A stretch of DNA of 64,000 bases from GCF_053078305.1 NZ_CP166879.1; one strand, 5' to 3'. Positions 23,770 through 47,773 are shown, counted from the first letter of the stretch. The notes: generated by a model from the sequence alone, not told the origin. Numbers and translations are program-made.

Positions 23770-23875
23770 CAGAAACACAGAAAAGAAGCGATTTGCCGCA
23801 ATCTTAAGCAGTTGAATCGCTTTTACTGAAATTAGGTTGACGAGATGTGCAGATTACGGTTTAATGCGCCCCGTT

Positions 23876-23951
23876 GCCCGGATAGCTCAGTCGGTAGAGC
23901 AGGGGATTGAAAATCCCCGTGTCGGTGGTTCGATTCCGCCTCCGGGCACCA
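23876..23951 (+). tRNA. pheU: tRNA-Phe (anticodon GAA), pheU-type locus
   Basis: 76 nt: GCCCGGA acceptor stem pairing with TCCGGGC, D-arm AGCTCAGTCGGTAGAGC, anticodon loop ATTGAAAAT (GAA), T-loop TTCGATT, 3' CCA; followed directly by an integrase gene. Confidence 0.95.
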
Positions 23952-24146
23952 TATACCAGAACACGCTGGTTAAGGGATGAGATCCTTGACGGGCGGTTAA
24001 TACAGGATGCGGCATCAAAGGGTCTCCGTTTGTGTAAGTTGTGGTTACACTGATTGAGTTCGGTATCGTATCCTCAAACAGGGTCTCTTTTGCAGAGACG
24101 CCCTGTTCTCGTTAACACTGTATGCTTACATTGCTGATTCAGCCTG

Positions 24147-25184
24147 TCAAGATTTATTCCCCCCTTTGCAAATCTTGCTCACTGTGCGCTCATCTGTATA
24201 CAAACTCAGGGCATCTTCCAGTGTCTGCGCTGCAGACTCCATACAGACATCAACATACCCCATGGTCGTTGTAAGACTCCTGTGTCCCAGTATGGATTTG
24301 ACCAGATGTAAATTACGTTCAGGATATTTCATCAGTCTGGTTGCCAGCGTATGTCTGAAACGATGTGGTGAAACAGGAAAACCACATTCTCGCGAAAGTC
24401 GCCGGAAAAATGAACGTACGGTCTGATGCGCCCGAACGGGACAGTACTGATATCTGTCGGCAGAGATCGGCTCACTGAAACGACAGACGTCAAAAAGATA
24501 GTCATCATCACCTGCCCCGCACTGACGGGCCCGCTCCAGCAGTTTTTCCATCGATACCTTCAGGGGAGCCACCAGAGGAACGCCCCATTCCCTGTGAGTT
24601 TTACTTCCCTCCAGCTTAAGATCAATTATGCTTTCATCCGGACAGACATCCCTCACACGGATATGCTTCAGTTGATTAAAGCGCATTCCGGTATAACGCA
24701 GAACATCCAGAACTGTCAGCCAGTACCAGGCAGGGTATATAGCATTGCGTCGACGACTATTCACCATGTTCTGCTCTTCCGCTTCTGCAAACCTCTGCAC
24801 AACCAGGTAAACCCTGAGCATCTGATTGTCACTCAGTGTCTTTTTCTTTTTTTCAGTACTCGCAACTGATGCTTCCACCAACGGGTTTTCTGTCTGAGGC
24901 AGCAGTTTCATCTTGATCCCGAATCCCATAATTGCCCGCAAGTGGGCCACCTTGTTATTCCAGGTCACCTCCCTGCGCTTCTGCTCTTTCAGGACATAAC
25001 GCCGGTATCGCTGAACATCACGGACAGTCACCTCCCCCGGCAAAATATCACCGATAAATTCCCTGAATACCCTGACAACTTTGCAGTAGCTCCACTCTGT
25101 ATCCGGCCGAAGATTCTTTGAAAAAAAGTACTCTTCCAGCAGTTGTTCCCAGGTGATTTTTGTGACGGAATCGTCATTCTGCAT
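24147..25184 (-). CDS. Tyrosine-type site-specific integrase (island integrase)
   Basis: Start MQNDDSVTKITWEQLL (ATG 25184); catalytic signatures TGMRFNQL, HRFRHTLATRL and LGHRSLTTTMGYV; adjacent to the tRNA 3' end. Confidence 0.85.
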   Translation of the reverse strand: MQNDDSVTKITWEQLLEEYFFSKNLRPDTEWSYCKVVRVFREFIGDILPGEVTVRDVQRYRRYVLKEQKRREVTWNNKVAHLRAIMGFGIKMKLLPQTENPLVEASVASTEKKKKTLSDNQMLRVYLVVQRFAEAEEQNMVNSRRRNAIYPAWYWLTVLDVLRYTGMRFNQLKHIRVRDVCPDESIIDLKLEGSKTHREWGVPLVAPLKVSMEKLLERARQCGAGDDDYLFDVCRFSEPISADRYQYCPVRAHQTVRSFFRRLSRECGFPVSPHRFRHTLATRLMKYPERNLHLVKSILGHRSLTTTMGYVDVCMESAAQTLEDALSLYTDERTVSKICKGGNKS

Positions 25185-25251
25185 TATATATTCCCCTTGT
25201 TTACTGTGCTCCCGCACTCTCCGGTCAAATTCTGCACATCATCGCCTTTAC

Positions 25252-26739
25252 TCACCCGAAAACAATAAGCGGGCTGTCTCCGGGAACCGTAATATTCCCG
25301 TACAGAAACCTGCCCTTAACCAGATATCCCGAAACCATTTTGTAACGTCCGGAATGTTCTGCGTCACTATAAAGACGGGCCTGAAAAAAACGCTCTCCTG
25401 AACGTACCTTATGGATACCTGCCCGTTCAAAGAGCGACTGAACATAACGACGATCCTGCCCGGAACCACTCTCCTTCAGAAAACGATAAAAAATCCCCGG
25501 GGCACACAGAAAAACATATCCGGAAACAACATGAACATTTGAATCAACGCTGTTAACCGAAAGTGAACCCTCCCTCAGCCCCTCTTTTAACCATCTGATA
25601 AATTCACTCTCTACCCTGCTATCCTCTGTCAGGGAAAACTCTGCCGTTTTTTCCACTGTTTCCGGGATACGGTTTCCCTGATTTTCTGTTACACATCCGC
25701 TCTCTTCCGGTAACTCAATACCGCTTTCTTTATCCGGCGGCACGCCTGACGCTATCTGCCCTCCCTCATCCGACAAATCAGCAGCAGAAAACAGCGTAAG
25801 GAGCATTCCGGTATCAGCATCAGTTTCGTTCCCCTCATCCACCTCCTGTTCCGCTGTCCGGCCCTCATTTTCGGCATCCTCCACTGGCGACTGTACAACC
25901 GGCAACGGCTGAATGACGCTTTCTGCTGAAATTGCTGCTGACTGCAGCAGTACCGGAACAACCTCAGCCACCGGAACTTCGGCCACATCTCCTGCAGCGA
26001 GGGGACTCACGACTTCCTCCATAGCTTCCTGTAATACTGTACGTATCAGTGCCATTTCAGGATGCTGATGCCAGACTGCTCCGGCAAGATTCTGTAATGC
26101 CCCCGGGACAGTGGCAAGCCAGGCTCCCGCCTCTCCGGGCAGCAGTTGTCCCGCCATCAGGGCTGCCAGTTGCCGTCCCTCCGTTCCCTGGCAGGGCATC
26201 TTCCTGAACCGGAACCGGTATACGCCCTCAGGTACAGATATCCCCGGCTGCCAGCATCTGCCGTCGGCCTGTTCGCCTTCCAGTTCCGCCAGCAACGGCA
26301 GGTGATAAAACAGAGCCGACCAGAACACCACCATGTTCCACACACTCCCCTGCGCGGCCTGCTCTTCTGCTGTCGCTCCCGGTGGAAACATTCTGCCTCT
26401 GGCCAGCCGGACAGCATACGTCGTGAACTGCAGGGTCAGGTCACCAAAACCACCGGTGTAACCCCAGCGACCTTCTGCTGTGGCCGGCAGATTCTGACTG
26501 ACAGACAACAACTGATGCACAGGATCAAGACAAAGGCGCTGATACATATCCACCGGCATGGAACTGTTTTCCCATAACTGTTTCAGACACCTTTTCCTGA
26601 ACGGTGTGGATACCAGTACATCAGCCGGCAATGGTGTAAAATACCCCTCCGGCACCGTTTCCCCGGGAATATCCGTCCGGACATCAGAACATTCTGTCTT
26701 CACAGGAAATAACCTTTTCAGGCGTTCAAGCATGCCCAT
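25252..26739 (-). CDS. Hypothetical protein (495 aa) with an acidic low-complexity central region; operon partner of the helicase
   Basis: Long ORF whose start overlaps the stop of the upstream helicase gene by 14 nt; no motif I can assign. Confidence 0.5.
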   Translation of the reverse strand: MGMLERLKRLFPVKTECSDVRTDIPGETVPEGYFTPLPADVLVSTPFRKRCLKQLWENSSMPVDMYQRLCLDPVHQLLSVSQNLPATAEGRWGYTGGFGDLTLQFTTYAVRLARGRMFPPGATAEEQAAQGSVWNMVVFWSALFYHLPLLAELEGEQADGRCWQPGISVPEGVYRFRFRKMPCQGTEGRQLAALMAGQLLPGEAGAWLATVPGALQNLAGAVWHQHPEMALIRTVLQEAMEEVVSPLAAGDVAEVPVAEVVPVLLQSAAISAESVIQPLPVVQSPVEDAENEGRTAEQEVDEGNETDADTGMLLTLFSAADLSDEGGQIASGVPPDKESGIELPEESGCVTENQGNRIPETVEKTAEFSLTEDSRVESEFIRWLKEGLREGSLSVNSVDSNVHVVSGYVFLCAPGIFYRFLKESGSGQDRRYVQSLFERAGIHKVRSGERFFQARLYSDAEHSGRYKMVSGYLVKGRFLYGNITVPGDSPLIVFG

Positions 26740-28216
26740 TCTCCTGAACCCGACCTGATGTGTCGTACCCGGTCCCCCGCAGACCTTCAGTTTTCTGCTG
26801 TTCTTCTGCCAGTTGGTGCATCAGGTCATTCAGTACCAGCGTCCTGAGGGCCCGGGTGACAGCCACATATAACAGACAGGTTTCATCATGACGCTCGGCC
26901 TCCGTCATCAGCGGAACCGTGATATCCTGGAAATCCTCATCCAGCATTACAACCGGCCACTCCAGCCCCTTGCTCCGGTGTGCCGTTGACACCGTGATAT
27001 CTGCATCCTGCTCATTCGTTACCGTATACTGCCGGAGAAGTTCCAGTTTTTTCGGTAACGGAAAACACAACTCCAGAAGCCGAAGGGACTGATTCATCTC
27101 CACATCCTTCGTGGATTTTGCAATATATTTATATTCTTCAAAATTCCTGTAGTCCCGGCGCAGCCTGTCTGAATGCATCCGTTCCGGCATATCAACCTGG
27201 AACCAGTAGAGATCCTCAAGTTCCCCGGTCCTGTAACCTTCGATTCCCCCCACCCAGTAAACCTTTTGCCCTTTCATTGCCGCCATCAGCGCAGTACCAA
27301 TCACACCCGCGACAGTACGACTGAGTACCGTGTAATGCCCCTGCAGATGTTCACGCGCATGGCATTTCAGCAATACCTCATCATCACCACCACAACCTTT
27401 CACCTCTCGTGTTTCACCTTCACGCTGCAGAAGCAGATTTGCCATACGAGCCACCGCCGGACCAAAACGGAAACTCTGTGTCAGCCACAACCGGTCCGCA
27501 TTCTTCAGTGCAGGATGGGAAAGCGCATTATTCGCACCCCGAAAGCGGTAAATCTGTTGATAACAATCTCCAACAAGGACCACCCGACACTTCTGCCCCA
27601 GAACCAGAGCAGTGGTCACCGGATTCGCATCCTGCGCCTCATCAAACAGGATGGTGTCCCATCGGTGAGACAGGTCTGCACCGGACAACTGGAAGAGTTT
27701 CAGATAAGTATCGTGCGTCACCGGGAACGTCCCCCCGGGGTTGCTCATTTCGTTCCAGAGCAACTGCACCGCCCGAAGCGCATCTGCTGGCGGAACACCC
27801 CGCATCTCATCCTTATCCGGCAGGTGATGCAGGCCCGGTACCGCATCAGCAGAACAGATAAAATGATTCAGCCCCGTCCCTGCCACCCGTGCCAGAGCCC
27901 AGTATCGTGTATTCAGCTTTCTCGCCACATCAGTAATACGTAATCCCGGAACCAGCCGATGACGGTAGTGTCTTCCAACCCGGGCATACGCCAGCTGATG
28001 TGACGTTCTGCATTCCACGTTAAAGGGAAATTTACGCTCTGCCTCATCACGTATTGCCCGGTTATAGGCAAGATAGAGCATACGGCTGTCCGGACTGGCC
28101 CGGGCAAACTGCACCAGCGTACTCGTCTTCCCTGTGCCGGAAAACGCATTCACAACCAGTTGCTGCCCCTGCCAGTTAATAATGGCGTACTGTTCATCTG
28201 TGGGATTAAAAGACAT
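26726..28216 (-). CDS. UvrD/Rep-like superfamily 1 DNA helicase
   Basis: Start MSFNPTDEQYAIINWQ (ATG 28216); Walker A GTGKTS, motif II FDEAQD, C-terminal VAVTRA-type motif. Confidence 0.8.
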   Translation of the reverse strand: MSFNPTDEQYAIINWQGQQLVVNAFSGTGKTSTLVQFARASPDSRMLYLAYNRAIRDEAERKFPFNVECRTSHQLAYARVGRHYRHRLVPGLRITDVARKLNTRYWALARVAGTGLNHFICSADAVPGLHHLPDKDEMRGVPPADALRAVQLLWNEMSNPGGTFPVTHDTYLKLFQLSGADLSHRWDTILFDEAQDANPVTTALVLGQKCRVVLVGDCYQQIYRFRGANNALSHPALKNADRLWLTQSFRFGPAVARMANLLLQREGETREVKGCGGDDEVLLKCHAREHLQGHYTVLSRTVAGVIGTALMAAMKGQKVYWVGGIEGYRTGELEDLYWFQVDMPERMHSDRLRRDYRNFEEYKYIAKSTKDVEMNQSLRLLELCFPLPKKLELLRQYTVTNEQDADITVSTAHRSKGLEWPVVMLDEDFQDITVPLMTEAERHDETCLLYVAVTRALRTLVLNDLMHQLAEEQQKTEGLRGTGYDTSGRVQENGHA

Positions 28217-28447
28217 GTATTCTCTTCTCCGGAAAAACATTTCCGTAATCTGATGCATCAGGGGTATGCCCACCACAAATAACTCTGTACAGCAACAGAA
28301 AAATTTCCCTGGTCATATGATGAATTAATCATCGCCATCACACCGGATGCTTCTCATCCTGTCCTCAGAAAGACAGGTGGTCTCCTGTCTGCCGCGCTTA
28401 TCCAGGATACCGGGACCTGAAAGGTCATAATCTGGCAGGAAAAAATA

Positions 28448-30124
28448 ATGTCCGAAGTAAAAAAACACGTTTCTTATTCATTAACAGTTGCAGCTATGCT
28501 GTCAGCCGCCATCGTCTGTCAGACAGCACATGCTGATATCAACACACCGAACATCACCGGAGAAAAAAACAATACAACAACACGATTCTCCGGAAATATT
28601 TACGGCAGTGAAAATACTGTCACATCAGAGTCAAACAGTCTGGTTGTGGGTAACAGTAATTCCGTGGAGGGAGGGTATAACAACATTGTTATTGGTAATT
28701 CCTCCACGGTCAAAGCTTCCGGTTTGATCAGAAAAGTGGGCGAAGATATTGTGCTGGATGGTTACAGCGTCAGCCTCGGTAATGCCACCAGAATTAACGG
28801 TGATTCATCTGTTGCCATAGGTCTGACATCGTCCGTAACCGGGAACGACTCCGTGGCACTGGGCAGTCATTCCAGTGCTAACGGAAACAATATCGTATCC
28901 GTCGGCTCTGACACACTGAAACGCCGCATCACAAATCTGGCACAGGGGAAAGATGACCATGATGCGGTAAATCTGATGCAGATGACCAGTGCTGTTAACC
29001 GGGAAGCTGGAGAAAGAATAAAATCAACAAACAACCTGCAGAATCAGCTTAATACCCTCTCTGGTCAGGTCATAACTGAAACCAGGGCCCGAACAGAAGG
29101 TGATGCAGCAGCGCTGGCTGCAGCCAGAGCCCACAGCGATGAAAACGACAAAAGAACACTGGTCAGTGCGAATACCTATGCTGACCAGAAAGAAACCGCC
29201 ATCAATAACCGTACTGACGGATTACTGACGACCGAACGCCAGGCACGCACCGCAGGCGATACTGCAACTCTGGCTGCTGCCAGAACGCACAGCGATGAAA
29301 ACAACAAAAGAACACTGATCAGTGCGAATACCTATGCTGACCAGAAAGAAACCGCCATCAATAACCGTACTGACGGATTACTGGCTACAGAACGCCAGGC
29401 ACGCACCGCAGGCGATACTGCAACTCTGGCTGCTGCCAGAACGCACAGCGATGAAAACAACAAAAGAACACTGGTCAGTGCGAATACTTATGCTGACCAG
29501 AAAGAAACCGACATCAATAACCGTACTGACGGATTACTGGCTACAGAACGCCAGGCACGCACCGCAGGCGATACTGCAACTCTGGCTGCTGCCAGAACGC
29601 ACAGCGATGAAAACAACAAAAGAACACTGATCAGTGCGAATACCTATGCTGACCAGAAAGAAACCGCCATCAATAACCGTACTGACGGATTACTGACGAC
29701 CGAACGCCAGGCACGCATCGCAGGTGATGCCGCAACTCTGGCAACAGCAGCGGCATACAGTGACGCCGGGGATTCACTGACACTGAAACAGGCAACAGCC
29801 TACAGCGATATCAGTACCCGCCGGGCACTGTCAGAGGCCAATCGTTATACCGACAACAAATTCAGAAACCTGAGCAATAAAATTGAACGGGCAGAAAAAA
29901 GACTTAATGCAGGCATCGCCGGAGTGACAGCAATATCCTCCATCCCCTATGTGGCTGAAAATTCTTTTTCATACGGGATCGGCGTGGGTAACTATCAGAA
30001 CGCTAATGCTGTGGCCGCAGGCATTCAGTATAAAACATCACGTAATACCAATATACGCCTCAACATCTCCTGGGACTCATCTCATAACACCGCGATTGGT
30101 GCAGGGGTTGCCGGCGGCTGGTAA
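28448..30124 (+). CDS. Trimeric autotransporter adhesin (YadA-like; Eib/Saa-like size class)
   Basis: Signal peptide (AAMLSAAIVCQTAHA); head repeats (NSVEGGYNNIVIGNSS, SVAIGLTSSVTGNDSVALG); coiled-coil stalk with tandem repeats; C-terminal YadA anchor ending NISWDSSHNTAIGAGVAGGW. Confidence 0.8.
   Translation: MSEVKKHVSYSLTVAAMLSAAIVCQTAHADINTPNITGEKNNTTTRFSGNIYGSENTVTSESNSLVVGNSNSVEGGYNNIVIGNSSTVKASGLIRKVGEDIVLDGYSVSLGNATRINGDSSVAIGLTSSVTGNDSVALGSHSSANGNNIVSVGSDTLKRRITNLAQGKDDHDAVNLMQMTSAVNREAGERIKSTNNLQNQLNTLSGQVITETRARTEGDAAALAAARAHSDENDKRTLVSANTYADQKETAINNRTDGLLTTERQARTAGDTATLAAARTHSDENNKRTLISANTYADQKETAINNRTDGLLATERQARTAGDTATLAAARTHSDENNKRTLVSANTYADQKETDINNRTDGLLATERQARTAGDTATLAAARTHSDENNKRTLISANTYADQKETAINNRTDGLLTTERQARIAGDAATLATAAAYSDAGDSLTLKQATAYSDISTRRALSEANRYTDNKFRNLSNKIERAEKRLNAGIAGVTAISSIPYVAENSFSYGIGVGNYQNANAVAAGIQYKTSRNTNIRLNISWDSSHNTAIGAGVAGGW
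29132..29755 (+). repeat. Four tandem copies of a 156-bp (52-codon) in-frame repeat inside the adhesin stalk
   Basis: Unit starts at 29132, 29288, 29444 and 29600 (CACAGCGATGAAAAC...), near-identical; encodes HSDENNKRTL(V/I)SANTYADQKETAINNRTDGLL(T/A)TERQARTAGDTATLAAART. Confidence 0.9.
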
Positions 30125-30363: not shown

Positions 30364-30852
30364 TTATTTTATTGTGGATAATGATGCCAATGGCATGAAT
30401 AAAGTTCTTCCGGACTCCGGGAACGCCATAAAGCCATAATGTTTGTAAAATGCGACTGCCGTGTCATCTTTTGCATCAACAATAAGCGCATATGCTGCAA
30501 TTTCAGATGTGTATGCACGATATAGCGCATCAGCTAAAAGTGCTCCCCCAAGCCCCGTTCCTTTTGATGACAGACTTACTGCCAGTCGTCCCATACGAAT
30601 AGCCGGAATAGTGGGATATCGCGGAAGCTTTTTTCTCAAATGCTCAGGTAAGTCAGTTAATAATATACTGGCCGCTGATAACGTATAGTATCCGATGATA
30701 TGATGATCGTTATCTACAGCGACAAAACAGGCCGCGATGCGTCGTCGAATATCCTGTGTGACATGCTCTTTTATGTAACGGTCCAGAGCATCAGAGCCAC
30801 ATAAAAATGAGGTTCTGTCATATGTGCTGTTAAATGGTGTCAGTTGAAACAT
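30364..30852 (-). CDS. GNAT-family acetyltransferase toxin (TacT/KacT/ItaT-like type II toxin)
   Basis: 162 aa with GNAT acetyl-CoA motif GTGLGGALLADAL; immediately downstream of, and co-oriented with, a DUF1778-type antitoxin gene (5-bp gap). Confidence 0.75.
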   Translation of the reverse strand: MFQLTPFNSTYDRTSFLCGSDALDRYIKEHVTQDIRRRIAACFVAVDNDHHIIGYYTLSAASILLTDLPEHLRKKLPRYPTIPAIRMGRLAVSLSSKGTGLGGALLADALYRAYTSEIAAYALIVDAKDDTAVAFYKHYGFMAFPESGRTLFMPLASLSTIK

Positions 30853-30857
30853 TATAT

Positions 30858-31139
30858 TTATTTTGTGTACAGCATATTATTACGGCGTTTAAAGGCCCGT
30901 TTAAGCGCATCATTCGGCTCTGTTGGTGACAGTAATGCCTGAGCAAAAATTTCCTGATCTGTCCGGGACAGTCGGATTATATCGGTTTGTTCGATAGCGC
31001 GTTGGGCCGCATCCTGAACGGCAGCAATGATAAAATCGGTCATAGTGCGCCCCTGGATTTCTGCAGCGCGCTTCAGCATGGCATGTAGTTCTGTGCTGAT
31101 CCTTGCTTCCAGTCGGGCAGTTTGTGTTGCAGATGGCAT
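30858..31139 (-). CDS. DUF1778-type ribbon-helix-helix antitoxin (TacA/KacA-like)
   Basis: 93 aa, RLEARISTELHAMLKRAAEIQGRTMTDFIIAAV (RHH fold), upstream partner of the GNAT gene. Confidence 0.75.
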   Translation of the reverse strand: MPSATQTARLEARISTELHAMLKRAAEIQGRTMTDFIIAAVQDAAQRAIEQTDIIRLSRTDQEIFAQALLSPTEPNDALKRAFKRRNNMLYTK

Positions 31140-34893: not shown

Positions 34894-35118
34894 ATGACAC
34901 GCAACGCAACGCAACGCAACGCAACGCAACGCAACGCAACGCAACGCAACGCAACGCAACGCAACGCAACGCAACGCAACGCAACGCAACGCAACGCAAC
35001 GCAACAATATGCTCGCCTGAACTCTCTCCGTCAAGTACCTCTACCTCCGTGCTTTCTGGAGGTACTGTATGAATATACGCAACAATCATCTACCGGGAAC
35101 AGAAACTCTTTTTTCTGA
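34894..35118 (+). CDS. Candidate leader ORF containing the pentanucleotide tract and overlapping the mod start
   Basis: ATG 34894 preceded by GAGG (34885-34888); reads MT(RNATQ)x7 through the repeat and ends at 35118, 50 nt beyond the mod ATG; coding status unproven. Confidence 0.35.
   Translation: MTRNATQRNATQRNATQRNATQRNATQRNATQRNATQQYARLNSLRQVPLPPCFLEVLYEYTQQSSTGNRNSFF
34899..35005 (+). repeat. Perfect pentanucleotide simple-sequence repeat (GCAAC)21
   Basis: 21 uninterrupted GCAAC units at 34901-35005 (tract with partial unit starts 34899), ending 63 bp upstream of the mod ATG. Confidence 0.97.
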
Positions 35119-37105
35119 AACTGAAACTGCGAACAGTAAACAACTTGCTGTTTTGAAAACTAACTTTCCACAGTGTTTCGATAAAAACGGAGCTTTCATT
35201 CAGGAAAAGCTGCTTGAGATCATCAGAGCATCAAATGTTGAAATCTCTAAAGAGTCATACTGCTTAAACTGGCTTGGCAAATCCTATGCTCGCCTGCTGG
35301 CTAACCTACCACCAACGACATTGCTGTCAGAAGATAAAGACCATAACCGACGTGAAGAGAACAAGAACAGTCAAAATCTGTTAATCAAAGGGGATAACCT
35401 TGAGGTATTAAAGCATATGGTTAATGCTTATTCTGAAAAGGTTAAAATGATTTATATCGATCCGCCATATAACACGGGTTCTGATGGGTTCGCCTATAAT
35501 GATGATCGCAAATTTACACCAGAACAGCTTTCTGATCTGGCGGGTATCGATCTTGATGAGGCTAAACGTATACTTGAATTTACCACGAATGGTTCAAGCA
35601 GCCATAGCGCATGGTTAACGTTCATTTATCCTCGTTTATATATTGCTCGTGAGCTTCTACGTGAAGATGGTGTGATATTTATTTCGATTGACGAAAATGA
35701 ATTAAATCAACTTAAAACTATTTGTGATGAAATTTTTGGCGAAGCAAATTTCATAGAAAATATTGTATGGAATAAACGTATCCCTAAAAATGATAAGGGT
35801 ATTGGTAATATCCATGAGTACATCCTTGCTTATGCGAAGAATAACGAAATAAGTAAAGAATTTTTAATGCGGAAAGATGGTATTGATGATGTATATCAGT
35901 TTATTGAAAAGTTAAAAAAGGAAAAGGTGCCATTAGATAAAGCAGAGCAGCAACTCAAAAAATTCTACAGCTCCAACGGATATGATCGTGGAATTACTCT
36001 TTACAACGGTTTGAACGAGGATTATAGGCCATGGGGTAAAATTAATATGAGTTGGCCTAATGCAGATTCATTTGGACCCACGTATGAAGTATTGCACCCT
36101 TTGACTAATAACCCTGTCAAAATCCCAGACAGAGGCTGGCGTTGGAAAGAAGGCACTTTTAATCATATTGCAAAAAGAATAGATGGAAAGTATGCAGATA
36201 TCAAAAAACTACATGATGGTAGCGTTATTTGTGGTGGAATTTGGTTTGCCCGTACAGAAAAAACCCAACCCAGTTCGGTTAAATTTTTAGATGAAGTTGA
36301 AGAGTTTTTACTAAGATCAATTATTTCAACTAAAAGTGATGGTGGTGTTGAGGTTGAAAATCTTTTTGGTGGGAAAGGATATTTCTCCTACCCGAAGCCA
36401 ACAAGTTTAATAAAAACACTATTTGGTTCAGTAAGAACCGAAGATAAAGACATTTATCTTGACTTTTTTGCTGGCTCTGGAACTACAGCTCATGGTATTC
36501 TGGAGTTAAATATTGAAGACGGCAGGAAAAGAAACTTCATCTGTGTTCAATTAGATGAAGAAACAGATAAAAAGAAACAAGCCTATAAAGAAGGGTATAA
36601 ATCCATCTTCAATATAACAAAAGACAGAATTATTAAGGCAGGAAAAAAGCTGAAAAAAGATAATCCTAATTATAATGGAGATTTGGGATTTAAAATATTT
36701 GAAACAGTTCATGATTTTCGAGCGAAAGATGAGTCTGAACTTACGCTTTCTAATCTTAGTTTCTTTGACGATGCTGTATTGACACCAGAGCAGTATGACA
36801 CTCTATTGACGACATGGTGCGTGTATGATGGCAGCTTGCTAACAACACCAATTGAAGATATTGACCTTAATGGCTACAAAGCACACTTGTGCGATGGTCG
36901 GCTATATCTAATTGCGCCTAATTTCACAAGTGAGGCTTTGAAAGCTTTACTTCAAAAGCTGGATGCAGACAAAGACTTTGCCCCTAACAAAGTTGTATTT
37001 TATGGCAGCAACTTCGAAAGTGCGAAACAGATGGAACTCAATGAAGCACTAAAAAGTTATGCTAATAAAAAATCTATTGATTTAGATTTGGTGGTAAGGA
37101 ACTAA
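35069..37105 (+). CDS. mod: Type III restriction-modification methyltransferase Mod (N6-adenine)
   Basis: 678 aa; GGAGG Shine-Dalgarno at 35058-35062; motif IV IYIDPPYNTG, motif I FFAGSGTTAHG; followed 2 bp later by res. Confidence 0.9.
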   Translation: MNIRNNHLPGTETLFSETETANSKQLAVLKTNFPQCFDKNGAFIQEKLLEIIRASNVEISKESYCLNWLGKSYARLLANLPPTTLLSEDKDHNRREENKNSQNLLIKGDNLEVLKHMVNAYSEKVKMIYIDPPYNTGSDGFAYNDDRKFTPEQLSDLAGIDLDEAKRILEFTTNGSSSHSAWLTFIYPRLYIARELLREDGVIFISIDENELNQLKTICDEIFGEANFIENIVWNKRIPKNDKGIGNIHEYILAYAKNNEISKEFLMRKDGIDDVYQFIEKLKKEKVPLDKAEQQLKKFYSSNGYDRGITLYNGLNEDYRPWGKINMSWPNADSFGPTYEVLHPLTNNPVKIPDRGWRWKEGTFNHIAKRIDGKYADIKKLHDGSVICGGIWFARTEKTQPSSVKFLDEVEEFLLRSIISTKSDGGVEVENLFGGKGYFSYPKPTSLIKTLFGSVRTEDKDIYLDFFAGSGTTAHGILELNIEDGRKRNFICVQLDEETDKKKQAYKEGYKSIFNITKDRIIKAGKKLKKDNPNYNGDLGFKIFETVHDFRAKDESELTLSNLSFFDDAVLTPEQYDTLLTTWCVYDGSLLTTPIEDIDLNGYKAHLCDGRLYLIAPNFTSEALKALLQKLDADKDFAPNKVVFYGSNFESAKQMELNEALKSYANKKSIDLDLVVRN

Positions 37106-37107
37106 TC

Positions 37108-40020
37108 ATGTCTAAAGGGTTCACATTCGAAAAAAATTTACCTCATCAAAAGGCTGGCGTTGATTCGGTAATGAATGTCTTTGTATCCGCCATACCTCAT
37201 CAGACGGATCATGTTGCAATTCGCCTGTTAGCTAATCCAGAACTGAATCTATCTGAACAACAATACTACAACAACATAAAAAATGTTCAGGAGTTCAATG
37301 GTATTGAGCACTCAAAAGATAATTACGATGCTAAAAGCAACGTAATTGATGTTTCTATGGAGACAGGTACAGGTAAAACTTATACTTACACCAAAACAAT
37401 TTTTGACCTGAACAAATCATTTGGTATTAACAAATTTATCATCATTGTTCCTACCCTATCGATCAAAGCCGGAACCGTTAACTTTTTAAAAAGCGATGCT
37501 ATAAAAGAACACTTTCGAGATGATTACGAGCGTGAACTAAAGACTTACGTTGTTGAAAGTCAGAAAAGTTCGGGTAAAAATACAAAATCGTATATGCCTC
37601 AAGCTATCCATGATTTTGTTGAAGCAAGTAATTTCAATAAGAAATATATACACATTCTTGTGATCAACTCAGGGATGATTAACTCTAAGTCTTTAACTGA
37701 CACTTATGATGTTGGCTTGCTTGATAATCAGTTTGATACCCCATTTTCTGCACTTAGTGCGATAAAACCATTCATTATCATTGATGAGCCTCATAAATTT
37801 CCTACTGGTAAAAAGACATGGGAACATATTCAAAAATTTAATGCCCAATATATCATCCGCTATGGCGCAACCTTTAGTGAAGGCTATAAGAACTTAGTTT
37901 ATCGTCTTACAGCCGTAGATGCCTTCAATGAAGATCTTGTTAAAGGTATTGATGCATACATTGAGGATATAGTTGGTGATGGTAATGCCAACCTCAAGTT
38001 GGTCAAATCTGACGGAAAAGAAGCTACATTTGAACTGAACGAAAATAATAATAAAAAAATTTTTAAGTTAGCCAAAGGTGAATCACTATCTAAGACGCAT
38101 AGTGCGATCCATGATTTAACTCTTGATGCTTTAAATAAGAATACAGCAGTGTTGAGTAATGGTATTGAGCTAAAAATTGGTAGTTCGATAAACCCCTATT
38201 CTTACGATCAGACACTTGCTGATAACATGATGCGTAAAGCTGTCAAAGAACACTTTAAGTTAGAAAAAGAGTATCTGACACAAAGGCCACGCATAAAACC
38301 TCTTACTCTTTTCTTCATTGATGACATTGAAGGCTATCGTGATGGTAATGATATTGCAGGAAGCCTGAAAACTAAGTTCGAAGAATACGTTTTGGCAGAA
38401 GCAAATGAACTGTTAAAAACAGAGAAAGATGAGTTTTACAGAAACTACCTTGAAAAAACTGTTAAGGATATATCTTCTGTTCATGGTGGTTATTTTTCAA
38501 AAGATAATAGTGATAAAGATGATAAAATTGAGCAGGAAATCAACGAAATCCTTCATGATAAAGAGCTTCTATTGTCTTTAGAAAATCCTCGCCGTTTCAT
38601 TTTCTCTAAATGGACGTTGCGTGAGGGATGGGATAACCCAAATGTCTTTCAGATTTGTAAGCTCCGTTCGAGCGGTAGCACCACATCTAAACTTCAGGAG
38701 GTAGGGCGTGGTTTACGTCTTCCAGTGAATGAATACATGTGCCGTGTGAAAAACCGCGATTTTACTCTCAACTATTATGTTGATTTTACGGAAAAAGATT
38801 TTGTTGATTCTCTTGTAAAAGAGGTTAATGATAGTTCTTTCAAAGAAACTGTTCCAGGTAAGTTTACTCAAGAACTTAAGGATAAAATCTTATCTCAGTA
38901 TCCTGAGCTTTCATCCAGAACACTCATGAATGAGATCTTTGATGCTGAAATTATTGATGATAATGAAAACTTCAAAGATTCCGATGCCTATAGCCGTTTA
39001 AAAGCAAAATATCCGGCTGCATTCCCTACCGGGGTGAAACCAACAAAAATAAAAAAAGCCACGGATGGAAAAAAGCGTACTAAAATGCGTATTGGTAAGT
39101 TCAGTGAGTTGAAAGAACTATGGGATTTGATCAATCAAAAAGTAGTAATTGAGTATAAAATAAATAGTGAAAATGAATTCTTATCCATTTTCAAATCATT
39201 CATGATTGAAGAAACAGATAGATTTACTAAATCAGGTGTTCATACTCGCATTGATAGAATTTATATTCATAATGATACGGCGATGTCGAAAAGTATCGTC
39301 AGTGACGATGATAACTTTGCTAAACTAAACACAATGAGCTATCGGGAATTTCTTGATAACTTATCACAAACTATTTTTGCTAAACACGATACCTTACATA
39401 AGGTTTTTTGTGATATAAAAGACACTATCAATATCACCGACTACCTGAACATTCAGACAATCAGAAAGATTAAATCTGGGTTTAGCAAGTATTTGTTGAA
39501 CAATTCATTTAACAAATTCAGCCTTGGATATAATGTAATTTCAGGCTCAATTCATCCTACAAAATTCACTAATGCAGACGGTAATCACCTGCATGAGGTA
39601 TTATCAGGTGATCTTGGAGTATTACAGGATAATACAAAAGCCCCCCTAGACTCTTATCTTTTTGAAGAAGTTTTTTATGATTCAGAGCTTGAAAGACTCA
39701 ATATAACAGACGGAGAGATCCACTCTGTTGCTGTTTTTACAAAGATACCGAAAAACTCAATTAAAATTCCAGTGGCAGGTGGATACACATATTCTCCTGA
39801 CTTTGCTTATGTTGTAAAAACAACAAAGGGTGACTACCTTAACTTTATTATTGAAACAAAAAATGTCGAAGGTAAAGAAAGTTTACGTAAAGAAGAACTG
39901 GATAAAATAAAGCATGCACAAAAACTTTTCGAACAGGTAAGTAAATCTGTAAAAGTAACTTTTATAACTCAATTCTCAGGTGACAGAATCCATGATCTGA
40001 TAAAAAATGTGATTCAGTAA
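37108..40020 (+). CDS. res: Type III restriction enzyme Res subunit (SF2 helicase-like ATPase/nuclease)
   Basis: 970 aa; Walker A TGTGKTYT, DEAH-like IIIDEPHKF; tightly coupled to mod. Confidence 0.9.
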   Translation: MSKGFTFEKNLPHQKAGVDSVMNVFVSAIPHQTDHVAIRLLANPELNLSEQQYYNNIKNVQEFNGIEHSKDNYDAKSNVIDVSMETGTGKTYTYTKTIFDLNKSFGINKFIIIVPTLSIKAGTVNFLKSDAIKEHFRDDYERELKTYVVESQKSSGKNTKSYMPQAIHDFVEASNFNKKYIHILVINSGMINSKSLTDTYDVGLLDNQFDTPFSALSAIKPFIIIDEPHKFPTGKKTWEHIQKFNAQYIIRYGATFSEGYKNLVYRLTAVDAFNEDLVKGIDAYIEDIVGDGNANLKLVKSDGKEATFELNENNNKKIFKLAKGESLSKTHSAIHDLTLDALNKNTAVLSNGIELKIGSSINPYSYDQTLADNMMRKAVKEHFKLEKEYLTQRPRIKPLTLFFIDDIEGYRDGNDIAGSLKTKFEEYVLAEANELLKTEKDEFYRNYLEKTVKDISSVHGGYFSKDNSDKDDKIEQEINEILHDKELLLSLENPRRFIFSKWTLREGWDNPNVFQICKLRSSGSTTSKLQEVGRGLRLPVNEYMCRVKNRDFTLNYYVDFTEKDFVDSLVKEVNDSSFKETVPGKFTQELKDKILSQYPELSSRTLMNEIFDAEIIDDNENFKDSDAYSRLKAKYPAAFPTGVKPTKIKKATDGKKRTKMRIGKFSELKELWDLINQKVVIEYKINSENEFLSIFKSFMIEETDRFTKSGVHTRIDRIYIHNDTAMSKSIVSDDDNFAKLNTMSYREFLDNLSQTIFAKHDTLHKVFCDIKDTINITDYLNIQTIRKIKSGFSKYLLNNSFNKFSLGYNVISGSIHPTKFTNADGNHLHEVLSGDLGVLQDNTKAPLDSYLFEEVFYDSELERLNITDGEIHSVAVFTKIPKNSIKIPVAGGYTYSPDFAYVVKTTKGDYLNFIIETKNVEGKESLRKEELDKIKHAQKLFEQVSKSVKVTFITQFSGDRIHDLIKNVIQ

Positions 40021-40848: not shown

Positions 40849-41535
40849 TCATGCCACATTCTGCTCCTGAAGATGACGCAGACGATGGTCCCAGTTTCCC
40901 AGGTAATGCCCGGGCGTCAGCAGTACGCGGCGTCGCTCATTACAGAGCGAGTTACCAATCACCACTTCTCCGGCCACACCACACAACGACAGTTGTATAT
41001 ACGCCATGCCGGCTGCCAGCGGGTCAATATCCGTTGCCGACACCCACATCCTGCGATATGCCGGATACCCCGAACGGTTCAGGGTGTCAGCCATTGCCAG
41101 AATCATACTGCCGGCACCACAGGCAGGTTCACTGAGCGTGATAAAGGGTTTGTTCTCAAACAACGCCTTCACATCTCCCATCTGCATCTGTGCCATCATG
41201 CTGGCAACACTCCAGGGCGTGAAAAACTGACTCCGGTATTTATCCCCCAGTTCCAGTTGCATGAACACACTCCCCAGAAAATCACAGACTCCCTGCTCCA
41301 GTCCCTCAATGACATGAGCAAGCAAATGCGCAATGTGGATAACATCCTGCTTTTCATAACCACTGACGATCCGCAGATACTTCTGTTCCCGGGCCTCACT
41401 GAACTGAAGCCGGTTTTCCAAGGCAATCACACTACAGCTGACAAAGTCTTCAAACACCTTATGACGTTTGTGATAACAGGCTGTCCGGTTAAACAACGAA
41501 ATGAACTCCTTCTGATGGTCAGTCATGGTGGCCAT
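40849..41535 (-). CDS. N6-adenine DNA methyltransferase-like protein (HsdM-like fold, short, apparent degenerate motif IV)
   Basis: 228 aa; QFFTPWSV and SEPACGAGSM resemble the FxTP and AdoMet-binding motifs of HsdM-like methyltransferases; no canonical NPPF/DPPY seen. Confidence 0.55.
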   Translation of the reverse strand: MATMTDHQKEFISLFNRTACYHKRHKVFEDFVSCSVIALENRLQFSEAREQKYLRIVSGYEKQDVIHIAHLLAHVIEGLEQGVCDFLGSVFMQLELGDKYRSQFFTPWSVASMMAQMQMGDVKALFENKPFITLSEPACGAGSMILAMADTLNRSGYPAYRRMWVSATDIDPLAAGMAYIQLSLCGVAGEVVIGNSLCNERRRVLLTPGHYLGNWDHRLRHLQEQNVA

Positions 41536-41646
41536 GTTTTCTCCGTAAAAACAGGGAACACATGGCCCGGACAGGGGAACAGGTGTTCCCCTTCGGGTTG
41601 AAATGTTGATAAAACGGGCATCACGGACATGATACCCGGAGGTTAA

Positions 41647-42594
41647 TTACTGGGCTGAGACCAGAGGAACCGGTAAAGGTGCGGCTTTCGTCTGTTCTTC
41701 AGCGCACTCCTCCACCAGGTACAGTCGGGGCTGTGGAAGTGTTTCCCTGCCCGGCCATTCGGCCTGCAGATCACTGTCCGTATGCTCTCCGCCATCGTAA
41801 CAGTTGTAACCCTGTATACCGTGTACCGGCTCGCTGTACCAGTGTCGGACCTCGCAGTCAAACACCTTCGAGATCTCACCAACCAGTTCGCCTGAAGGCG
41901 GATACCAGGGCGTGTCGATCAGCAGCACCAGACTGCTCATCTCATCACGCGCATGGCGAACATTATTTCCTGACGGCCACTCCACACCGTATATCCGGCT
42001 GTAAAGGCTGGTCGTTGTGGAAATACCCTGCAGCAGTCCACCTGAACCATTCAGCTCTGTAGCCAGACGGGAGGGTATGACCATCAGCATGTCACAGGGC
42101 TGCGCCTGTTCCGGGTAATCCGACAACCAGCTCCAGCAGGCTTCTGCATCAATGTGTTCACTCAGCCCGGCCAGACCAAACCAGTCAGAATACTGACGGC
42201 TCATCAGCGTGGTGATGATCTCCCTGGCATTATCCGGCAGATTACCCCAGCGAACAGCGCCGATACATGACTGGTGATAAAGACGCTCAATGGTCTTTAT
42301 CGTTTCACCATCCAGAACGGCATTTTTTACCAGCAACCCCAGCCACTGCTCAAACGCCTGGTTAGCCGGAGATGACAACCCCGTTCCGTGACGAACCAGC
42401 GCCGGATATGGCGGATACTGCGTCGTCCGTGTGGGTTTTACCAGCCCTGCACAACCGGCCAGAAACAGCTGTATACTCTGCTGTATGGCATGACGGTAGC
42501 GCGGGGTCTCACGCCCTTCAATCCACTGTGTAAGTACATCAAGACAGACTGATTTACCGGTAATTTCAAAACGGTTTTTGCACCATTCAGACAT
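41647..42594 (-). CDS. Hypothetical protein (315 aa)
   Basis: ORF only; first in a same-strand run of genes. Confidence 0.5.
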   Translation of the reverse strand: MSEWCKNRFEITGKSVCLDVLTQWIEGRETPRYRHAIQQSIQLFLAGCAGLVKPTRTTQYPPYPALVRHGTGLSSPANQAFEQWLGLLVKNAVLDGETIKTIERLYHQSCIGAVRWGNLPDNAREIITTLMSRQYSDWFGLAGLSEHIDAEACWSWLSDYPEQAQPCDMLMVIPSRLATELNGSGGLLQGISTTTSLYSRIYGVEWPSGNNVRHARDEMSSLVLLIDTPWYPPSGELVGEISKVFDCEVRHWYSEPVHGIQGYNCYDGGEHTDSDLQAEWPGRETLPQPRLYLVEECAEEQTKAAPLPVPLVSAQ

Positions 42595-42677
42595 TGTTTA
42601 CGCTCCTCTTTTTTATACAGATGTAAAAAGAGGGCATTGTCCCGTGAGGTACAATGCCCTCACGGGAAAACGGGGTA

Positions 42678-42992
42678 TCACGCCCCGTTGTTGCGGATAA
42701 AACCCTGCAGCCAGGCAGTTCGCTCAGGGCCATACCGCCTGTTGACATTCATCAGTTCGTCTGCAGACGGATTGATGAAAAGGTTGTAGTACCAGAGCTC
42801 TTCCTTTAAATCCGCCAGGTTCCCCCTGCCGGTCCTGAGCCACTCCTGTACAACATCCCTGATTTCAGATGTGACATCTCCACGGTAATTTGACGTGATC
42901 GTAACATCTGCCAGTAATTCACTGATATTTCCTGCTATCAGACACGGTTCAGAGATCCCGTTACAGAACCAGACAAGGCATTTACCAGCCAT
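42678..42992 (-). CDS. Hypothetical protein (104 aa)
   Basis: ORF only; 3-bp gap to the upstream ORF. Confidence 0.4.
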   Translation of the reverse strand: MAGKCLVWFCNGISEPCLIAGNISELLADVTITSNYRGDVTSEIRDVVQEWLRTGRGNLADLKEELWYYNLFINPSADELMNVNRRYGPERTAWLQGFIRNNGA

Positions 42993-42995
42993 ACC

Positions 42996-43433
42996 TTACC
43001 TCCTGTATTTGCTGGTATTTATCCCGATCTCGTTTATGGCTACGGATATGTTGCCCGGAAAACGCGCTGTTTCAATCTTCTCCAGCTCGTTTTTCCGGTA
43101 ACGCTCCACGGTCACACTCAACGGGACGTTCCCCTGTCCGTACTCTTTACGAAGGCGATCAATACACTCCTGTACCAGTTCATCGCTGAAATAACGGGAT
43201 TCAAGCACAGACAGCAGCCCGTCTTTATTCTCAAACCCCTCTGTGACAGAGCGTACTTCGGCCTCCGTTGGACCATCCAGCCAGCTCACCCACACATTGT
43301 TGAAAACTTTCGGGAAAGATGGATCGCATTTCCGCACAGAAAATTTCTGTCCCGGAAATGTATACGCCAGCACATCCCTGATACGGGCCACAACAGCATC
43401 GTCAACATCAACCAGTGCGTTATCGTTCATCAC
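42996..43433 (-). CDS. Hypothetical protein (145 aa)
   Basis: ORF only; same strand, tightly spaced. Confidence 0.45.
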   Translation of the reverse strand: MMNDNALVDVDDAVVARIRDVLAYTFPGQKFSVRKCDPSFPKVFNNVWVSWLDGPTEAEVRSVTEGFENKDGLLSVLESRYFSDELVQECIDRLRKEYGQGNVPLSVTVERYRKNELEKIETARFPGNISVAINEIGINTSKYRR

Positions 43434-43539
43434 TCAGTTCCTCTGTAATCCTGAAATAACAGAGAGCACTGCCCCGTGAGGGACAATGCCCTCACGGGAT
43501 AAATGGCGGTCAGGTTATAACCGCCACCGGTAGTAAAAA

Positions 43540-44517
43540 TTATGCTGCGCACTCCTGCGAAGTTCGCCGCGTCAGTAAATACTCTGATGCTTCACGTGCC
43601 TGCCGGCAGGCGCGAAACAGCGCTTTTTTGTCAGACTTCAGAACCTTAAGCCATCCGTCAATATAACTTTCGTGCTGTACGTCACCGGCAATCCCGAGAT
43701 GTGCACACAGAAAAGCACTGCCCATCTCGGCAATCAGCTCTTCAAACGCATATTCCGGGCTTTTGCGACCGGTAAAGGTACTTATCCCCACCCGCCGCAG
43801 GCGCTTTTCATGACCGGTACTGTGTACCAGCTCATGCAGCAGGGTGGCCTGGTAATCAGCCACCTGGTCAAACTGCGACGACAGTGGCATCACGATACGG
43901 TCAAGATCAGGCCGGTAGAATGCCCTGTCCTGTGGAAGTGACGAGACGCTGACGCCGCTGCCATTCAGTACCTGCAGCACCCGCTCACTGAAGGTATCTG
44001 CCGGCAGTGCATCCGCGCTGCCTTCCGCCTTCACCATCAGATGTTCAGGTAAACCGTCACACTGCCCCACATTAAACAGAGGATTCGATTTCAGTACCGG
44101 TACGATTTCCATGAGAGGCTCCCCCTCACTGTCCGTCAGCCGGTTACCGTGTTCATCCACAGCCTGTTTTTTCCAGTCTTTGTAAATCACCGCCAGCGTG
44201 GCCACCTCCCCTTTACGGACGTGGCCACCCAGTTGTTGCGCCTGACGGTACGTCAGCCAGTCATTGCTGACATACCCGGCTTCATCCGCGGCCAGCCACA
44301 GCAACAGGACGTTCACCCCTGTATAAGGCTTCCCGGTCAGGGCATTTGCCGGCATCATCTCCGGAAGCCCCACGCCATTACGCGCAGAGCGCCAGGGACG
44401 TTTCCAGGGTGGCACACCATTTTCAATGGCCGTAACAACCCTGTCGGTCACAAGCTGATACAGGTCACGTTCCGGAGTTTTAATCGCGGTACGTGAAGTA
44501 TGTTTTTTCGTTTTCAT
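43540..44517 (-). CDS. ArdC-like anti-restriction protein (N-terminal ssDNA-binding domain plus zincin metalloprotease domain)
   Basis: Start MKTKKHTSRTAIKTPE (ATG 44517); HExxH zinc-protease motif in LLHELVHSTGH; architecture typical of conjugative-element ArdC. Confidence 0.7.
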   Translation of the reverse strand: MKTKKHTSRTAIKTPERDLYQLVTDRVVTAIENGVPPWKRPWRSARNGVGLPEMMPANALTGKPYTGVNVLLLWLAADEAGYVSNDWLTYRQAQQLGGHVRKGEVATLAVIYKDWKKQAVDEHGNRLTDSEGEPLMEIVPVLKSNPLFNVGQCDGLPEHLMVKAEGSADALPADTFSERVLQVLNGSGVSVSSLPQDRAFYRPDLDRIVMPLSSQFDQVADYQATLLHELVHSTGHEKRLRRVGISTFTGRKSPEYAFEELIAEMGSAFLCAHLGIAGDVQHESYIDGWLKVLKSDKKALFRACRQAREASEYLLTRRTSQECAA

Positions 44518-44609
44518 AAGAGCATGCCCCCTGAAAAAGATGCACGCTCCCTGTACGGTGAGAGTGCACCGTACAGTTAAATTAATAACGAAAATCAGAC
44601 TGGCCAGAA

Positions 44610-45029: not shown

Positions 45030-45108
45030 AGGGATATGTCCCTGCCGGGTGATATAATGACGGAATACGTGATGACGTTATTCCGGATAAAGAAACTACG
45101 GCGTTCTG

Positions 45109-45768: not shown

Positions 45769-45819
45769 CGGGGAATGTCTCCCGGACGGAGAACTCCCCC
45801 GTCAGGGTCAGGTCATGAA

Positions 45820-47515: not shown

Positions 47516-47773
47516 AGGTGGGCAGATTTACCACCACCAGAAACATCCTGGCTGCACATCCCCTTTCAGGTTACGGGGGTGTTGATCACCCGAAGGCGTT
47601 CCTCTCAGATCAACGGAACATTGGTGCCCACCGAAGCGGGATGTGGTCACCCGAAGGCGCTCCTCTCAGACCACTTATGGAGCATTGGTGGTCGCCGAAG
47701 CGACATGTAGCCACCCGAAGGCGCTCCTCTCAGGCCACTTGTGGAGCATTGGTGGTCGCCGGAGCGACATATA
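47449..47773. repeat. Direct repeat copy 1 (about 325 bp) with three degenerate tandem ~63-bp sub-units
   Basis: Near-identical to 49782-50038 over about 255 bp; sub-units begin CACCCGAAGGCG(C/T)TCCTCTCAG at about 47584, 47647 and 47711. Confidence 0.9.

Follow-up and report, generated by a model that had tools for sequence, protein, structure and literature searches.

The gene trio at the tRNA-Phe gene

We analysed a window of 64,000 nucleotides (nt) of an Escherichia coli genome (GCF_053078305.1, NZ_CP166879.1), and all positions given below without another source refer to it. In this window an island begins at a tRNA-Phe gene with three genes of one strand, which code for a superfamily 1A (SF1A) helicase, a protein of 495 amino acids (aa) and a tyrosine integrase. 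The trio is very probably the integration and DNA-transfer end of an ICE (integrative and conjugative element) of the SPI-7/PAPI-1/pKLC102/ICEEc2 type, with a type G mating-pair formation system (MPF-G), inserted in pheU. Upstream of the island the window is E. coli chromosome, with dcuA, cutA, dsbD and yjdC/dicD followed by the tRNA-Phe gene at the pheU position. The original prediction, made from the sequence alone, had placed three genes reading toward the tRNA at 24147-28216, and all three are present there and intact. The features of this end of the island, with the evidence for each in brackets, are:

23876-23951, plus strand: tRNA-Phe (GAA), pheU, the attachment site (ARAGORN and sequence)
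23952-24146, no strand: spacer on the side of the left attachment site (attL), from the tRNA to the integrase stop codon (sequence)
24147-25217, minus strand: XerC/D-like tyrosine integrase, open reading frame (ORF) of 356 aa, probable start ATG 25184 giving 345 aa (NCBIfam, PHROG, catalytic pattern, RefSeq)
25252-26739, minus strand: TraI-like MOBH-family protein that fits the motif-less MOBH3 type, ORF of 495 aa, probable start 26733 giving 493 aa (TIGR03760, Pfam, PDB, AlphaFold2, alignment)
26726-28216, minus strand: SF1A helicase, FBH1-like subfamily of the UvrD family, 496 aa (Pfam UvrD domains, motifs, PDB, profile, PHROG)
28217-28447, no strand: divergent intergenic stretch that precedes the helicase and presumably holds the promoter of the helicase-traI(-int) operon (sequence)
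28448-64000, no strand: remaining island within the window, cargo and ICE backbone block (family searches, relatives)

The full ORF of the helicase covers 26726-28276 on the minus strand and its probable start is the ATG at 28216, which has a Shine-Dalgarno sequence, GGAG, upstream. Two start codons lie close together for traI. The first ATG (26739) has an AGGAG only 1 nt away and overlaps the helicase by 14 nt; the second (26733) has the AGGAG 7 nt away, gives a 493-aa product and reduces the overlap to 8 nt. Since the Shine-Dalgarno spacing fits the second ATG better, and since RefSeq and the homologues use it, traI probably starts at 26733, so that the 14-nt overlap originally reported is correct for the first ATG and becomes 8 nt at the likelier start. 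RefSeq also places the integrase start at ATG 25184 (345 aa). The helicase is translationally coupled to traI, and its overlap with the traI start is conserved. Repeat and promoter scans of the spacer between tRNA and integrase (23952-24146) showed no repeat and no promoter feature.

The 495-aa protein is a TraI homologue

The original prediction had been unable to assign any motif to the 495-aa protein, yet its family is clear. It scored 210.5 bits against TIGR03760 (“ICE relaxase, PFGI-1 class”), for which the curated cut-off is 161.4, over model positions 1-214 of 218, and it matched the NCBIfam MobH relaxase model as well, more weakly. In Pfam, TraI_2 (PF07514) was found at residues 32-218 (E 8e-20), covering model positions 1-196 of 324 only, and TraI_2_C (PF07515) at residues 378-491 (E 3e-17); this protein and its whole class lack positions 197-324, the second half of the TraI_2 model. 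The best solved relative by sequence was the C-terminal domain of STY4665 from Salmonella Typhi (PDB 2IPQ, E 1.2e-22), with the Coxiella structure 3KQ5 second, the identities being ca. 38% in the C-terminal domain for STY4665 and 16% for 3KQ5. An AlphaFold2 model (63 homologues) was confident for residues 30-250, where the N-terminal domain takes an HD-type fold, and for residues 369-493, while residues ca. 257-367 had a predicted local distance difference test (pLDDT) score <50 and are predicted to be disordered. The long acidic linker that had been described before is real: residues 251-370 hold 27 D+E versus 4 K+R and have an isoelectric point (pI) of 4.05. The C-terminal domain is basic (pI 9.1).

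Proteins of the MOBH family (Garcillan-Barcia 2009) begin with TraI_2, continue through a disordered middle part and end with TraI_2_C (PMC6736028), and this is the architecture found here, with TraI_2 above the cut-off, then a disordered acidic stretch, then TraI_2_C. By its domains, the 495-aa protein is the TraI-type relaxase homologue of the island (MOBH family, PFGI-1 class). The original prediction had left the choice between a replication/mobilisation module and a two-gene defence system, and had called for profile and structure searches of this protein, a confident assignment to a relaxase family with the helicase as accessory being named as the sequence half of what would speak against defence. 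That is the assignment which the searches gave.

The island is probably an ICE inserted in pheU

The 4.7-kb trio region is present at a coverage of at least 80% in 23 out of 5,426 complete E. coli genomes, and the 20 best-matching of these 23 are 99.2-99.8% identical over it. In the best matches the three genes carry the RefSeq labels tyrosine recombinase, “TraI domain-containing protein” and “UvrD-helicase domain-containing protein”. The trio is a module of a familiar kind, which RefSeq already annotates, and no new defence system. One of the relatives, E. coli FHI_NMBU_10, has the trio at 99.8% identity as the first block of an uninterrupted ICE of ca. 79.6 kb at pheU, which runs as far as a 50-nt copy of the 3' half of the tRNA, directly ahead of cadC. 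This element codes for the ICE proteins TIGR03745-03759, a conjugative ATPase, TraD, TraG-N and PilL-N, together with topoisomerase III (TopB), Ssb, the “SPI-7-type island replicative DNA helicase” DnaB-PI, ParB and ParA. SPI-7 itself is also found at pheU.

In the window, attL lies at the tRNA-Phe gene and the far-end repeat is known from this 99.8%-identical relative, ca. 79.6 kb away. No second copy of the tRNA-Phe 3' end was found within the 64 kb, and the island must therefore extend past base 64000. Further into the island there is a conserved backbone block (ca. 40849-52643) with genes for an N6-methylase, a DUF1281 protein, ArdC and a second recombinase of the Integrase_1 type; in the relatives this block is followed by the MPF-G genes. 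For the right end of the window the best match is the genome of E. coli JNEC-KY171, which continues with ter genes and then the same transfer genes. The arrangement typical of the ICE family, a XerC/D-like integrase at the tRNA end adjoining a PFGI-1-class TraI, is present. In E. coli, ICEs of the SPI-7/PAPI-1/pKLC102/ICEEc2 family are known to insert at pheU and pheV (PMC11537424, PMC6761156), and those of the ICEEc2 type at these two sites transfer under laboratory conditions and also mobilise chromosomal DNA (PMC13127887). Of the two functions that the original prediction had considered for the pair, the replication/mobilisation module is thus the one borne out, as a TraI homologue at the integrase end of an ICE of the SPI-7/PAPI-1/ICEEc2 type.

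The third gene had been taken for a tyrosine integrase, rightly so by its intact catalytic pattern R...HxxRH...GH...Y (here GMR / HRFRH / GH...Y) and by its PHROG integrase match (E 1.5e-35); the Xer-type NCBIfam matches were below cut-off, and RefSeq annotates it as “tyrosine-type recombinase/integrase”. The tRNA gene itself carries a trace of the insertion. Its T-arm is GGTGG...CCGCC versus CTTGG...CCGAG in the K-12 type, that is, with compensatory changes, and in FHI_NMBU_10 a K-12-type tRNA-Phe 3' half is found at the far end of the element (L006 31565-31616). Because the variant T-arm sits at the tRNA and the K-12-type half at the other end, the sequences indicate that the ICE swaps the 3' half of pheU for its own functional variant, with the crossover in or before the anticodon arm.

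The helicase belongs to an FBH1-like subfamily

All SF1A motifs are present in the helicase, namely GTGKT at residue 27, DEAQD at 192, GDCYQQIYRFRGA at 216, QSFRFG at 247, TAHRSKGLE at 411 and VAVTRA at 451, and Pfam recognised its UvrD domains. Its best solved relative was human F-box DNA helicase 1 (FBH1, PDB 9XZJ; E 1.9e-53, 185 bits), with residues 6-466 aligning end to end with FBH1 371-864, and the next structure was PcrA at E 6e-09 and 38 bits. A profile of 12 family members gave 352 bits to FBH1, 87 to PcrA, 82 to UvrD and 50 to the GajB chains; in PHROG, the helicase matched phrog_1967 (E 1.5e-85). By these scores, eukaryotic FBH1 is a much nearer relative of the subfamily than UvrD, PcrA or Rep are. 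The earlier description as an SF1 helicase of the UvrD/Rep kind was right as to the superfamily (SF1A), the UvrD family and the intact motifs, but what had looked like a generic UvrD is a member of this FBH1-like subfamily. Literature searches found no paper linking FBH1 to bacterial, conjugative or mobile-element helicases.

Homologues of the helicase are widespread on plasmids (1,835 records, of which 1,234 are typed as conjugative) and occur in 195 phage records at ca. 30-33% identity. Among the sampled distinct plasmid homologues, four out of five were on MOBH plasmids, in or beside the tra genes. In the IncA plasmid pRA1 (MOBH) the homologue is 50.6% identical and lies immediately upstream of traF-traH-traG, away from traI; in p1 of Klebsiella michiganensis (MOBH) it is 1.7 kb upstream of mobH, beside traA; a Pseudomonas shirazica plasmid and Providencia pC131, both with a MOBH relaxase, carry it too. 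On an Acinetobacter plasmid typed as MOBP it is found near an IcmP/DotM gene. This recurrent association with MOBH elements supports a role of the helicase in conjugative DNA metabolism. The pair of helicase and TraI was also found, with the 8-nt overlap and without integrase, on an E. coli IncFIA/IncFII plasmid (CP057208.1, 99052-102046), where the helicase is 68% identical to that of the window; this is apparently an ICE fragment captured on a plasmid. A TIR-domain gene lies near that pair.

Integrase-proximal positions are known hotspots for defence genes, and the helicase and the 495-aa protein could accordingly be two-gene anti-phage cargo beside the integrase, as the original prediction had also proposed. 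Besides the position, this idea has in its favour that the helicase matches several GajB (Gabija) models in PADLOC (E 1e-17 to 1e-18) and that a type III restriction-modification system is carried as cargo elsewhere on the island. Yet the GajB matches are partial and cover generic UvrD motif blocks, at 50 bits on the profile level versus 352 for FBH1, and no GajA/OLD-type nuclease or effector gene is paired with the helicase. The partner is a TraI_2/TraI_2_C protein, and the PADLOC scan of the three proteins gave nothing for it or for the integrase. The pair is, besides, conserved backbone, syntenic with the integrase across genera while the surrounding cargo varies, and homologues are found among the tra genes of MOBH plasmids. 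With no nuclease partner, and travelling as it does with integrases, type IV secretion genes and MOBH plasmids, the pair is most improbable as a defence system, and we have abandoned that option. We also weighed the UvrD and YbjD pair of SGI1 (S023/S024) as a possible relative and rejected it, since that pair is a different one, of the Gabija-like kind.

Conservation of the trio across genomes

Many E. coli and Salmonella genomes have a paralogous trio with the same gene order at pheV. The helicase of this trio (504 aa) is 76% identical and its TraI (551 aa) 50% identical to those of the window, the integrase has 352 aa, and the 8-nt overlap between helicase and TraI is the same. There are compact pheV versions in which the trio is only 7 kb from TraG-N. 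For a wider view, related loci were scanned in one genome per species, which gave 80 loci, all from Enterobacterales; the search patterns were drawn from the motif-less class of TraI, which biases the set to that class and to Enterobacterales. TraI followed by the integrase was almost universal among them. A full-length helicase precedes TraI in 19, in Pantoea, Erwinia, Mixta, Edwardsiella, Klebsiella, Pectobacterium, Brenneria, Serratia and other genera, and ca. 7 more have remnants or edge-truncated copies. Out of 26 helicase-bearing loci, the end of the helicase gene runs 4-11 nt into the start of TraI in 17; short gaps separate the two genes in six, and cargo insertions in three, all of Pectobacterium. 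The median identity to the window proteins (15 loci) was 65% for the helicase, 51% and 44% for the N- and C-domains of TraI and 54% for the integrase. tRNA-Phe flanked 11 of the 17 loci tested. The co-occurrence of the pair beside integrases at other tRNA sites had been suggested as a check; the trio in this gene order is seen again next to tRNA-Phe genes of other Enterobacterales.

Evidence that weighs against a canonical transfer module

A number of observations weigh against the interpretation of the trio as the transfer end of an ICE, some of them concerning this copy of the element and others the proteins themselves. The MPF-G transfer genes, TraD, ParA, ParB, DnaB, TopB, Ssb and the right attachment site (attR) all lie beyond the 64-kb window and are present in the relatives, from which we infer the completeness of this copy. 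In JNEC-KY171 two copies of the insertion sequence (IS) IS66 lie between type IV secretion genes (L099 25803-34020), so its ICE may no longer be self-transmissible. Neither did we find an origin of transfer (oriT). An inverted-repeat search of 23800-28600 for an oriT-like repeat returned a single weak repeat, inside the integrase gene; the matches in a scan for consensus promoters and terminators were no better than chance and gave no oriT lead; and the 260 nt upstream of the helicase, aligned across 12 loci, contain only a weakly conserved T-rich block and no oriT. Some of these 12 loci have a terminator-like hairpin upstream of the helicase.

The trio could also be a decaying remnant, without current function, in an island that no longer transfers. 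IS fragments and much cargo are present in the window, the IS66 copies interrupt the type IV secretion region of a close relative, and the related ICEKp2 excised while its transfer was not detectable (PMC6761156). Decay would be hard to reconcile with three intact ORFs in which all helicase and integrase catalytic motifs are present, with the near identity of the region in the 20 best-matching of the 23 trio-bearing E. coli genomes, with orthologues that have kept 44-65% identity and the overlap across genera, or with the uninterrupted ICE of FHI_NMBU_10. We regard a remnant as improbable and a transfer module as the better description.

The helicase is absent from ca. 37 of the 80 loci, including all those of Photorhabdus and Xenorhabdus. 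Being missing from these and from ICEKp2, it is not essential to the ICE family. Judged by this distribution, the TraI-integrase end is universal, and the helicase is an addition to it that is frequent and tightly coupled but can be dispensed with. Literature searches found no experiment on the helicase, its homologue on IncC plasmids included.

Another difficulty lies in TraI. We aligned it with more distant relatives of 600-700 aa that bear the motifs PASESHHHAxxGGxLDHxLEV, LLHDxGK, DYxLHP and ADQ. Like the window protein, these are encoded directly upstream of an integrase, and they have no helicase. The alternative 3H motif (SExHHH) is missing from the window TraI, the PASESHHHA of the relatives aligning with PATAEGRWG, and so is the HD motif (H...HD..K...D), with LDH replaced by GDL and LLHDIGK by LFYHLPL. 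DYxLH and the ADQ aspartate are absent, the equivalent of H117 is a leucine and HD..K has become YH..L; for Y93, Y212, H215 and D267 of the gonococcal TraI the N-terminal domain has no counterparts. The replacement is common to the query and its whole class. In this motif-less class the framework residues Q82, P85, D100, E125 and Q127 are invariant, but the search for a candidate catalytic tyrosine found none that is invariant in the N-terminal domain, the position of Y172 being a phenylalanine in the common 551-aa paralogue.

The TraI of the gonococcal genetic island is the only MOBH relaxase characterised biochemically, and Heilers et al. found that its 3H motif, its HD motif and Y212 are needed for cleavage (PMC6736028). 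The window protein lacks the two features that define a catalytically canonical MOBH relaxase, the 3H motif and the HD motif with Y212/H215. Since every residue required in the gonococcal protein is replaced, relaxase activity by the known mechanism is unlikely. 2IPQ (STY4665) and 3KQ5 have been assigned to MOBH3, whose members may have “an alternative function” (PMC6736028). With both the 3H and HD motifs missing, TraI_2 and TraI_2_C kept, and a relationship to STY4665 and 3KQ5, the window TraI fits the MOBH3 type, an assignment made by structure matches and missing motifs and not by phylogeny. We infer a role in conjugative DNA processing from its genomic context and not from its chemistry.

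Possible roles of the three proteins

The division of labour among integrase, TraI and helicase is much less certain than the identity of the module. A plausible sequence of events would be that the integrase excises the element at the tRNA-Phe repeat and that TraI then recognises the origin of transfer through its C-terminal domain, which is basic and winged-helix-like, and its N-terminal domain with the HD fold. TraI would act as the relaxosome or within it, with the DNA handed to the TraD coupling protein. The co-produced helicase would unwind the nicked element, for single-strand transfer and/or for rolling-circle maintenance of the excised circle, a role that might parallel that of the fused helicase domain of MOBF relaxases or of the host PcrA for ICEBs1.

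Another division of labour is conceivable. TraI might be an oriT-binding or coupling-protein adaptor and not a nickase, the nick being made by another ICE protein or by a host enzyme, and the FBH1-like helicase might serve mainly as an anti-recombinase that strips RecA from the single-stranded DNA of the element. This would parallel the action of UvrD/PcrA on RecA and of FBH1 on RAD51, and would keep SOS induction and recombination in check while the element transfers or replicates. Much of what was described above agrees with it: all the cleavage residues of gonococcal TraI (PMC6736028) are replaced and the N-terminal domain of the class has no invariant tyrosine, the helicase family is closer to FBH1 (352 bits) than to UvrD/PcrA (82-87), the helicase is better conserved than either domain of TraI, and in pRA1 the homologue lies upstream of traF-traH-traG and apart from traI. 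There is also a candidate for the nick. Tyrosine-recombinase-like relaxases exist, e.g., TcpM (PMC12857230), and the backbone carries a second tyrosine-recombinase-like gene, which, given a TraI homologue without catalytic motifs, could speculatively be a recombinase-type nickase like TcpM or MpsA. On the other side, a start/stop overlap with traI that has been conserved suggests that helicase and TraI work together. According to work cited in PMC6736028, the putative relaxase of Pectobacterium HAI2, which may or may not be of the MOBH3 type, is involved in mobilisation, and the conserved framework of Q82, P85, D100, E125 and Q127 would allow a different chemistry at the same site. This alternative is in our opinion rather unlikely, and we prefer to see in the helicase a partner of TraI in conjugative transfer.

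A bolder proposal, which we put forward tentatively and with little confidence, is that a MOBH3 TraI and its coupled FBH1-like helicase form a non-canonical pair. In such a pair TraI would do no more than recognise and recruit the origin of transfer, the active enzyme would be the helicase (as unwinding motor and/or RecA-stripping anti-recombinase), and the nick would be made by a different chemistry or by another protein. As part of the same proposal, the helicase clade of MOBH elements and large phages would be the bacterial sister, possibly the source, of the FBH1 helicase core.

As a standard end of a well-described ICE family, the trio matters little by itself. It is of use for annotation, because the whole right half of the window can be read as one large ICE with adhesin, restriction-modification and iron-uptake cargo, in a host of Shiga-toxin-type E. 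coli background. It also raises two questions: how SPI-7-type ICEs nick their DNA if the sole relaxase homologue has none of the known catalytic residues, and what an FBH1-like helicase, widespread on IncA/C and other MOBH resistance plasmids, contributes to transfer.

Other genes of the island

The remaining features identified within the island are:

28448-30124, plus strand: YadA-like trimeric autotransporter adhesin, 558 aa, with near-identical internal repeats
30364-31139, minus strand: candidate GNAT-toxin / DUF1778-antitoxin pair (TacT/TacA-like)
35069-40020, plus strand: type III restriction-modification system, with a methyltransferase of 678 aa and a Res endonuclease of 970 aa (NF012027, 1073 bits; NCBIfam)
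48169-49086, minus strand: second tyrosine-recombinase-like gene, 305 aa (Pfam Integrase_1 and Phage_int_SAM_2; conserved backbone)
53554-55689: siderophore receptor IreA
56330-61498, plus strand: EmaA/Ata-like trimeric autotransporter adhesin, 1,454 aa, followed by a TpgA-like OmpA-domain partner
61613-62134: IS256 fragment

The restriction-modification system is found within a segment of 35% GC (guanine plus cytosine) content, in a low-GC block at ca. 32-41 kb. FHI_NMBU_10 lacks this segment and carries subAB and sialic-acid genes in its place. Of the candidate toxin pair, the 162-aa protein fell into no NCBIfam family, and the 93-aa one matched YlcI/YnfO only below the threshold. The second recombinase gene is also present in a compact pheV element (L100 3364-4266).

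Comparison with known systems

The element resembles the ICEs of the SPI-7/PAPI-1/pKLC102/ICEEc2/ICEKp2 group in its probable insertion at a tRNA 3' end (that of tRNA-Phe in the enterobacterial members), in its terminal XerC/D-like integrase with the adjoining TraI of the PFGI-1 class and in ArdC; through its relatives the likeness extends to the TIGR0374x-0375x genes, TraD, TopB, Ssb, DnaB and ParAB (PMC6761156). It differs from ICEKp2, where integrase, relaxase and ArdC follow one another without a UvrD-type helicase (PMC6761156 supplement), in having a helicase gene in the operon, upstream of traI. The cargo is also its own, with adhesins, type III restriction-modification and ireA where the relatives have subAB or ter genes instead.

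Among relaxases, the prototype MOBH protein, TraI of the gonococcal genetic island, shares with the window TraI the three-part design of TraI_2, disordered middle and TraI_2_C and the HD-type fold of the N-terminal domain. Unlike it, the gonococcal protein has the residues for Mn/Co-dependent cleavage (SExHHH, H117, H161/D162/K165, Y212/H215 and D267), and the window TraI is without TraI_2 model positions 197-324. STY4665 of SPI-7 and Coxiella 3KQ5 are the closest solved structures and, like it, motif-less TraI_2 plus TraI_2_C proteins, the likeness being one of structure and sequence, with an identity of ca. 38% in the C-terminal domain for the former and 16% for the latter.

The helicase core can be aligned with that of FBH1 from end to end, with 352 bits at the profile level, but it has neither the F-box nor the N-terminal extension, is bacterial and borne by a mobile element, and has TraI as its partner in place of SCF/RAD51. 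The UvrD-like helicases of IncA/IncC and other MOBH plasmids are of the same subfamily (50.6% identity in the case of pRA1) and their carriers are likewise MOBH elements; they differ in being apart from traI, on pRA1 upstream of traF-traH-traG. Finally, the MOBF relaxases TraI/TrwC, and NicK of ICEBs1 with host PcrA and HelP, are comparable in that an SF1 helicase unwinds the DNA from the oriT nick, to allow both transfer and rolling-circle replication (PMC5812530). In TraI/TrwC this is a fused, RecD-like domain, whereas the window has a separate, coupled gene of the UvrD/FBH1 type, and, in contrast to TraI/TrwC and NicK, its relaxase homologue has no recognisable catalytic residues.

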